Sequence record: PV467748.1
DNA length: 64,000 nucleotides
Direction: 5' to 3' (one strand)
Origin: a phage
In this document: one piece after another, positions 48,870 through 48,938 of the stretch
Layout of the letters: every line of letters begins with the position of its first letter
Position numbering within the stretch: the stretch's first letter is position 1
Made by a program: the position numbers and the translations under genes
Notes under the pieces: model-generated
Databases searched by the model: none
Told to the model about the DNA's origin: nothing
What the model saw: only the letters and a program-made list of their open reading frames with translations

Positions 48870-48877
48870 TATTTATA
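48870..48877 (-). promoter_or_regulatory. possible late promoter (TATAAATA on the - strand) upstream of nrdA
   Basis: Reverse complement is an exact TATAAATA. Confidence 0.3.
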
Positions 48878-48934
48878 GAATGAAATTCAGTCCGACCATA
48901 ATAACCAAAAACAGAGTACAGATTATTTGAATTT

Positions 48935-48938
<4 letters not shown>
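48873..48938 (-). CDS. possible 21-aa hydrophobic leader peptide coupled to td
   Basis: [21 protein letters not shown]; ATGA overlap with the td stop; may be chance. Confidence 0.2.

Follow-up and report, generated by a model that had tools for sequence, protein, structure and literature searches.

When does a reading frame of only 21 codons count as a gene? The question is raised by a small open reading frame (ORF) located between td and nrdA in phage DNA. The DNA concerned, called the window throughout, is the whole 64,000 nucleotide stretch analysed from sequence record PV467748.1. It is Dhakavirus DNA and carries, on the - strand, the gene 32-frd-td-nrdA-nrdB block of a T4-like phage. The closest records are also Dhakaviruses: phage C6 (98%) and phages Bp7, WG01, and QL01 (~97%). 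A first-pass annotation, made from this sequence alone, had noticed that an ATG overlapping the td stop codon opens a hydrophobic frame, and that a late-promoter-like element lies ahead of nrdA. A leader peptide, a small membrane protein, and chance were offered as explanations. Comparison with related phages makes it very likely that the small ORF is a real gene, maintained by purifying selection.

The small ORF and its conservation

The features that meet at this junction are as follows.

48935..49795, - strand: td (thymidylate synthase, 286 amino acids, without intron), upstream of the small ORF and ending GTA TGA; named from the annotation of relatives
48873..48938, - strand: the small ORF, 21 codons, with start codon ATG at 48938-48936 and stop codon TAA at 48875-48873; encodes a hydrophobic peptide of 21 amino acids, with a grand average of hydropathy (GRAVY) of 2.19
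48935..48938, - strand: the ATGA junction, where the td stop codon TGA overlaps the ATG of the small ORF

The DNA of the small ORF is ATG AAA ATT CAA ATA ATC TGT ACT CTG TTT TTG GTT ATT ATG GTC GGA CTG AAT TTC ATT CTA TAA. Both the ATGA overlap (48938-48935) and the hydrophobic 21-codon frame are therefore present as first described. The surrounding 5.5 kb contain 79 ORFs that reach 20 amino acids or more. By calculation, ~23% of random ATGs, at this base composition, would stay open for 20 codons. Judged from one sequence alone, the small ORF is within chance, as is TATAAATA, the late-promoter-like motif that includes its stop codon. The small ORF rises above this level because of comparative evidence in relatives.

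To obtain this evidence, the peptide was compared with 50,697 phage records using tblastn. It was found in 82 records, all from Dhakavirus or Gaprivervirus-type phages, at one place per genome, and the matches were essentially full length. Conservation of the reading frame, whose absence the first-pass annotation had itself named as refuting, was seen throughout, with 21 codons in 82/82 records. Among the loci extracted there are 14 distinct DNA versions, each of exactly 21 codons. The window, C6, and IME08 share one peptide sequence, and Bp7 has another. Other versions of the peptide are given below.

JS98: MKIQIAGTLFLVIMIGLNLVL
VR5: MKIQIIGTLFLIIMIGLNFIL
VR7, VR25, and VR26: MKIQIAGILFLVVMVGLNFLL
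SP18: MNIQIAGILFLVVMVGLNFLL

The differences between versions are distributed as in a coding sequence. At codon positions 1, 2, and 3, there are 10, 3, and 14 variable sites respectively. For pooled pairs of Dhakavirus and Gaprivervirus sequences, the proportion of synonymous differences (pS) is 0.66, the proportion of non-synonymous differences (pN) is 0.13, and the ratio of the corresponding rates (dN/dS) is ~0.095. Amino acid replacements, in this comparison, are only of the types I/V/L/A, C/G, and T/I. Synonymous changes are many and include CTG/TTA/TTG for Leu (with the two-base change CTG/TTA), ATA/ATC/ATT, GGT/GGC, GGG/GGA, and AAT/AAC. Frame +1 contains stop codons in all versions. Frame +2 contains a stop in every Gaprivervirus version and is open in all Dhakavirus versions. 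The frame of the small ORF is the sole frame open in all versions.

We also simulated divergence, scattering the observed number of substitutions randomly over the 66 nt. In 14-24% of trials per pair, the ORF survived with its length unchanged. Trials in which it stayed intact, with no more amino acid changes than observed, made up 0.06-0.7% (P 0.0006-0.007 per pair). Segments flanking the small ORF provide a further yardstick, using the window and Gaprivervirus VR25. The peptide has 76% amino acid identity and a pN of 0.13, compared to 68% and 0.23 for td. At the nucleotide level, identity is 77% across the small ORF without gaps (0.80 in a gapped alignment), 61% in the 66-nt spacer that follows, and 55% in the last 66 nt of td. 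Hence, between these two phages, the peptide is better conserved than td, and the ORF is better conserved than either its 3' spacer or the td end. Residues F10, M14, L17, and N18 are invariant, and G16 is altered in one phage alone. Together, the comparisons indicate that the frame, the length, and the amino acid sequence are under purifying selection.

Gene contexts and annotation in relatives

The td-nrdA interval is hyperplastic. In T4 the gene order is td-nrdA.2-nrdA.1-nrdA, and the small hydrophobic ORF is absent. Other genera have assorted nrdA.2-like and nrdA.1 genes in the interval. Where the small ORF is present, it occurs in three contexts.

Context 1, td-ORF-nrdA: the window, C6, IME08, VR5, VR7, VR25, SP18, and CJ20
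Context 2, td-ORF-nrdA.1-nrdA: Bp7, JS98, CLBP2, ESCO10, and PSD2001
Context 3, td-nrdA.2-like-ORF-nrdA.1-(nrdA.2-like)-nrdA: VR20, VR26, EAWsc9, and one metagenome contig

In context 2, the small ORF is followed by a 293-bp gene for a DUF4326 protein (Pfam E = 6e-22), and PSD2001 has an additional nrdA.2-like gene before nrdA. The small ORF is never lost within the Dhakavirus and Gaprivervirus phages, whereas nrdA.1 and nrdA.2 come and go. Since it is kept while these accessory genes vary, we regard the small ORF as an independent, selected unit.

All three contexts have ATGA or TAATG overlaps, and these follow a simple pattern. The upstream gene meets the small ORF at ATGA in Dhakaviruses and at TAATG in Gapriverviruses, a 3-nt indel that leaves the relative frame unchanged. 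Conversely, the small ORF meets nrdA.1 at TAATG in Dhakaviruses and at ATGA in Gapriverviruses. Phages with context 3 have a GAGGT Shine-Dalgarno sequence 3 nt 5' of the small-ORF ATG. Note that 25 of the 65 window ORFs of at least 80 amino acids end in ATGA or TAATG, including frd, which meets td at 49795-49792. The overlap is ordinary gene-junction syntax for this genome.

Several further observations concern the neighbouring accessory genes. The nrdA.1 gene (DUF4326, 97 amino acids; 293 bp) is directly 3' of the small ORF in Bp7 (locus L001, 527-820), JS98, WG01, and QL01. It is absent at the 48872/48873 junction in the window, and also from C6, MX01, IME341, and IME08. The indel is flanked by a CTATAA repeat, and the presence of nrdA.1 co-varies with the final pair of variable small-ORF codons (NFIL vs NLVL). 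Some Gapriverviruses have one or two nrdA.2-like genes (65-81 amino acids, phrog_2458) around the small ORF and nrdA.1. These are found in VR20 (locus L035, 2361-2919), VR26 (L036, 2361-3230), and a third locus (L104, 1439-2302). All junctions between td and nrdA, in these loci, are 1- or 4-nt overlaps, giving a chain of four to five translationally coupled small genes.

In the 13 annotated records that were opened, the small ORF is nowhere listed as a coding sequence. For the five commonest peptide variants, a collection of 15 billion proteins contains no exact match. Scans of three peptide variants against Pfam, PHROG, and NCBIfam (E <= 10) gave no match, save for a meaningless PHROG hit with E = 0.26. 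A degenerate back-translated DNA pattern retrieved solely already-known Dhakavirus and Gaprivervirus genomes from IMG/VR. In a metagenome collection, the same pattern retrieved one Gaprivervirus-type contig, with no more distant homologues and no new contexts. An Rfam scan of 48600-49150 produced zero matches, and the literature searched contained nothing on the small ORF. A peptide called 'Emp', of Mosigvirus AV110, came up in a 2026 preprint that names both genera; it is an unrelated 109-amino-acid protein. Comparative sequence evidence thus makes the small ORF, very probably, a previously unannotated micro-gene that is core to Dhakavirus and Gaprivervirus.

Instead, the records of IME08, JS98, and ESCO10 show a frame +2 ORF that starts inside td and runs over the small ORF. 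It is named 'nrdA.1' in JS98 and IME08, and is a hypothetical protein in ESCO10. In the loci of relatives, this ORF is at 402-569 (L002), 405-800 (L004), and 664-1059 (L096). The window has a counterpart.

48835..48999, - strand: a 54-amino-acid ORF, in another frame, overlapping the td 3' end and the small ORF

From the alignments, the frame +2 annotation is probably wrong and an artefact of a longest-ORF rule, with the 54-amino-acid ORF of the window judged spurious. Separately, some gene names in records of relatives look misplaced. In phage 212 (PQ765507; L094, 1-1463), td is labelled 'dihydrofolate reductase' and nrdA 'thymidylate synthase', so that names seem shifted by one gene. In ESCO10, both td and nrdA carry the label 'thioredoxin'.

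The cassette upstream of nrdA

Between the small ORF and nrdA (48804-48877, - strand) is a cassette consisting of TATAAATA, a MotA-type middle promoter, a 12-bp hairpin, and a Shine-Dalgarno sequence. The relevant features are listed here, together with the genes that follow.

48870..48877, - strand: TATAAATA, identical to the T4 late-promoter consensus, which includes the TAA of the small ORF and is 63 nt 5' of the nrdA ATG; it is the 5' edge of the cassette and also, in relatives, the nrdA.1 insertion junction
48863..48893, - strand: hairpin GGACTGA...TCAGTCC, over the last codons and stop of the small ORF
48837..48861, - strand: candidate MotA-dependent middle promoter for nrdA (TGCTTAA, 12 nt, TAGAAT)
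48824..48853, - strand: 12-bp hairpin, whose loop takes in part of the -10 hexamer; it is just 5' of the nrdA Shine-Dalgarno sequence
48804..48815, - strand: nrdA Shine-Dalgarno sequence GAGGA (48815-48811) and ATG (48806-48804)
48806..46551, - strand: nrdA
46527..45319, - strand: nrdB

The nrdA gene begins 66 nt past the small ORF, with its own ribosome-binding site (GAGGA), and is uncoupled from it. As an aside, both td (48935-49795) and nrdB (45319-46527) are uninterrupted in the window; their T4 counterparts carry group I introns (with I-TevI and I-TevIII respectively).

In T4, late promoters have TATAAATA at positions -13 to -6 (PMC1524935). The first-pass annotation was correct in placing this motif on the - strand ahead of nrdA (48877-48870). 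As a sequence the element is real, and it is partly conserved, as part of the nrdA cassette and not of the small ORF. Specifically, (T/C)ATAAATA is retained 63-66 nt upstream of nrdA in Dhakavirus and Gaprivervirus phages. The ORF of Bp7-type phages ends CTATAATG, and the nrdA.1 end (CCTATAAATA) restores the box there. VR20 has CATAAATA in place of TATAAATA, and the motif is absent from VR26-type phages, in which another gene abuts nrdA. These alignments indicate that TATAAATA travels with the nrdA cassette and not with the small ORF.

Could the box be a functional, gp55-dependent, late promoter? If so, because the T4 late box sits at -13 to -6, an nrdA/nrdB late transcript would be predicted to start near 48864. 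This would be compatible with a coding role for the small ORF, and we consider it possible but somewhat doubtful. All eight bases match the consensus, on the coding strand, and the window has more copies of the motif than expected (16 vs 6.5 from shuffles). Furthermore, the box is kept upstream of nrdA, whether formed by the small-ORF end or the nrdA.1 end, depending on the phage. Set against this, the four - strand copies are about the chance level (~3 per strand), Leu-stop coding already dictates five of the eight bases, and the box is altered in VR20 and missing from VR26-type phages. In addition, nrdA is prereplicative and has a good candidate middle promoter 9 nt downstream of the box. 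With respect to the window as a whole, 10 of the 16 copies cluster on the + strand, between 1409 and 15973; this is presumably a late-gene region, transcribed oppositely.

The middle promoter can be compared with the MotA consensus TGCTTtA and its 12+/-1 spacing to a TAnnnT -10 hexamer (PMC2988021). TGCTTAA-N12-TAGAAT fits this pattern, and the putative architecture is kept in relatives, with TAnnAT -10 hexamers and the same spacing. Across the window, there are 11 matches to the MotA-box/-10 pattern, compared to 3.46 expected, and nine are on the - strand. Further - strand examples are found at 49832-49856, in the frd 3' end and upstream of td, and at 52696-52720, upstream of gene 32. We folded each sequence version of the cassette separately. 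The 12-bp hairpin of the window has a folding energy of -13.2 kcal/mol (z -5.6). The hairpin is also present in a second Dhakavirus version (-13.5 kcal/mol), where the inner stem differs and the -10 hexamer is TATTAT. The Gaprivervirus version has a GGGGTCATG...CATGACCCC stem and a TAGTAT -10 hexamer (-18.2 kcal/mol).

Proposed role, rival readings, and known systems

What might the peptide do? All versions have GRAVY values of 1.9-2.3. The head, M-K-I-Q, is short and polar, and is followed by ~17 hydrophobic residues; the start is MK, MN, or MQ among versions. In all versions, the 17 residues after position 2 (K, or in two variants Q or N) have a mean Kyte-Doolittle score of 2.4-2.9. A hydrophobic span of 17-19 residues would be marginal but sufficient for a bilayer. 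The explanation we favour, and think likely, is that the small ORF is a translationally coupled gene for a single-helix membrane micropeptide, made with the td and nrd genes, and acting at the membrane. The small membrane protein, coupled to td, is the supported option among those originally offered. Taken separately, membrane insertion and action at the membrane are predicted from the residues, and we lean towards both with less assurance.

In this scheme, ribosomes ending on td (or nrdA.2 in context 3) would reinitiate at the overlapping ATG. Because reinitiation follows td translation, the peptide would be made alongside the prereplicative td and nrd nucleotide-synthesis genes. Once made, it would insert as a single helix into the inner membrane of the host, its N-terminus probably cytoplasmic. 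There, much as small membrane regulators of bacteria and type I toxin peptides do, it may bind a membrane protein or self-associate through a conserved Asn/Gly face. Within a membrane helix, a polar Asn is a classic point of contact with another helix. Since the conserved residues include this Asn, we favour binding or self-association over a purely structural role.

A more ambitious version is also conceivable. The peptide could be a clade-core phage effector, among the shortest phage-encoded proteins, made early through td translation and residing in the host inner membrane. It might inhibit or hijack a host membrane protein, depolarise the membrane as type I toxins do (for host shut-down or competitor exclusion), or tether the nucleotide-synthesis machinery. 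We regard this extension as unlikely. Under the same extended reading, restriction to one clade, within a hyperplastic AT-rich interval, might make the locus a traceable example of a phage gene arising de novo.

Some of our data weigh against the micropeptide explanation. No similarity to any characterised protein was found in Pfam, PHROG, or NCBIfam, and the small ORF was not found in T4 or other Tevenvirinae. The family is limited to two sister genera, which bounds the depth over which conservation was seen. Only 20 codons are informative and many of the 82 records are close kin; hence, the statistics rest on few independent lineages. Next to td, the small ORF has no convincing Shine-Dalgarno sequence, and its expression would hinge on reinitiation. 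The peptide of Gaprivervirus CJ20 (L093, 701-766), MQIQIAGILFLVVMVRLNFLL, has the changes K2Q and G16R, the latter placing a charge inside the hydrophobic core. Either this replacement is tolerated or it is a sequencing error. Finally, the membrane mechanism is a prediction from amino acid composition.

Translation of the small ORF might matter while its peptide is a by-product. For instance, the ORF could relay ribosomes from td (or nrdA.2) to nrdA.1, or be a leader that remodels mRNA ahead of nrdA. In contexts 2 and 3 there are stop/start overlaps on both sides, and nrdA.1 is without an obvious Shine-Dalgarno sequence of its own. Moreover, the window hairpin at 48893-48863 covers the ORF stop, and would be melted by a terminating ribosome. 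Yet a relay or leader needs neither conserved amino acids nor a fixed length, and we observe dN/dS ~0.1 and an invariant length. The ORF is also kept where nothing is coupled downstream, as in the window, where nrdA is 66 nt off with its own GAGGA. Nor is the downstream gene constant, being nrdA here and nrdA.1 elsewhere. The hairpin is absent in Gapriverviruses: its folding energy is -10.5 kcal/mol (z -3.5) in the window, compared to -2.1 (z +0.75) for the Gaprivervirus equivalent. This hairpin is specific to a lineage and probably incidental. Such roles are thus distinctly improbable, and the leader peptide initially suggested is a poor fit to a locus where amino acids are under selection.

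Two further readings deny that this frame is coding. One holds that the frame is open by chance, and that the segment is conserved at the nucleotide level as a promoter, an RNA element, or a recombination junction of the hyperplastic td-nrdA interval. A 21-codon ORF is unremarkable in AT-rich DNA, T-rich DNA encodes hydrophobic residues by default, and the segment adjoins a conserved regulatory cassette and an indel junction. However, nucleotide-level constraint fails as an explanation because synonymous sites are close to saturation; a pS of 0.66, with amino acids held, is the opposite of what such constraint produces. There was no Rfam match, and solely the small-ORF frame is open in all versions. 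Simulated survival of the ORF, 14-24% per pair, becomes far less when required jointly with amino acid conservation. Chance, one of the original suggestions, is consequently rejected as very unlikely, given 21 codons in all 82 relatives, the low dN/dS, and closure of the other frames. The other reading takes the frame annotated in IME08, JS98, and ESCO10 (48999-48835 in the window) to be coding, as an NrdA.1 remnant or an N-terminal extension starting inside td. It was the choice of GenBank annotators and is open in all Dhakavirus versions, but every Gaprivervirus version has a stop and the translation changes non-conservatively. In addition, the short NrdA.1 already contains the DUF4326 domain from residue 4 onwards (residues 4-81 of the Bp7 protein), and NrdA.1 of T4 and other genera starts at, or just upstream of, a conserved C-R-V-V-N-K-Y motif. 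The window is without any DUF4326 sequence, the 293-bp nrdA.1 segment being missing. We consider this reading scarcely credible. An extension of the td C-terminus, by readthrough or frameshifting, was also discarded. The td frame, which is frame +1, meets a TAA three codons past its TGA and, in context 3, the ORF follows another gene.

Why should a micropeptide of this kind matter? Micro-genes of ~20 codons fall under gene-caller length cut-offs. Absence of the exact peptides from the 15-billion-protein collection, and the wrong-frame 'nrdA.1' of IME08 and JS98, illustrate how systematically they are missed. Retention in every member examined of two genera of E. coli and Shigella phages implies that the peptide likely contributes to fitness. 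Some Dhakavirus and Gaprivervirus phages are under characterisation for phage therapy. At 21 residues, chemical synthesis and direct testing are feasible and, if a host membrane protein is targeted, the peptide could be a compact tool or antibacterial lead.

Known systems offer parallels for both the locus and the peptide. For promoter-middle stem-loop (PmSL) cassettes, a part in the shuffling of modules within hyperplastic regions of T4-type phages has been proposed (Comeau et al. 2014, PMC4122927). The 66 nt upstream of nrdA, with a TGCTT Mot box, spaced -10 hexamer, stem-loop, and indel junction, can be likened in outline to PeSL and PmSL cassettes (Arbiol et al. 2010, PMC2839356; PMC4122927). 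Here, however, the stem-loop encloses the -10 hexamer, and the likeness concerns the neighbour of the ORF rather than the ORF. The nrdA.1 (DUF4326) and nrdA.2 genes share with the small ORF the same hyperplastic interval, direction, and overlapping-codon coupling. Unlike them, the small ORF is far shorter, unrelated in sequence, never lost in Dhakavirus and Gaprivervirus phages, and absent from T4.

Type I toxin peptides, such as Ibs (18-19 amino acids), ShoB, and TisB, are similar to the small-ORF peptide in size and extreme hydrophobicity, and membrane depolarisation would be plausible by analogy. Such toxins come from stand-alone loci with an antisense RNA, whereas the small ORF belongs to a sense polycistron and is translationally coupled. 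On the + strand between 48600 and 49100, there is one promoter-like site, vs 1.8 expected, and this is inside nrdA (48726-48755); the scan was simple and weak promoters could escape it. A simple scan for sigma-70 promoters and terminators found nothing relevant on the - strand. The peptide has no NCBIfam, Pfam, or PHROG membership in type I toxin families (E <= 10).

Bacterial small single-helix inner-membrane proteins include AcrZ, MgtS, KdpF, CydX, and PmrR of E. coli. The small-ORF peptide differs in being phage-encoded and, at 21 amino acids, at the very short end of the range, and no sequence similarity was found. Conversely, the likenesses are several: fewer than 50 amino acids, one predicted hydrophobic helix, a short charged N-terminus, a location in or coupled to an operon, and a history of being missed by gene callers. 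Small hydrophobic proteins of phages and bacteria are well known in kind, and the small-ORF peptide adds to this class without surprise.

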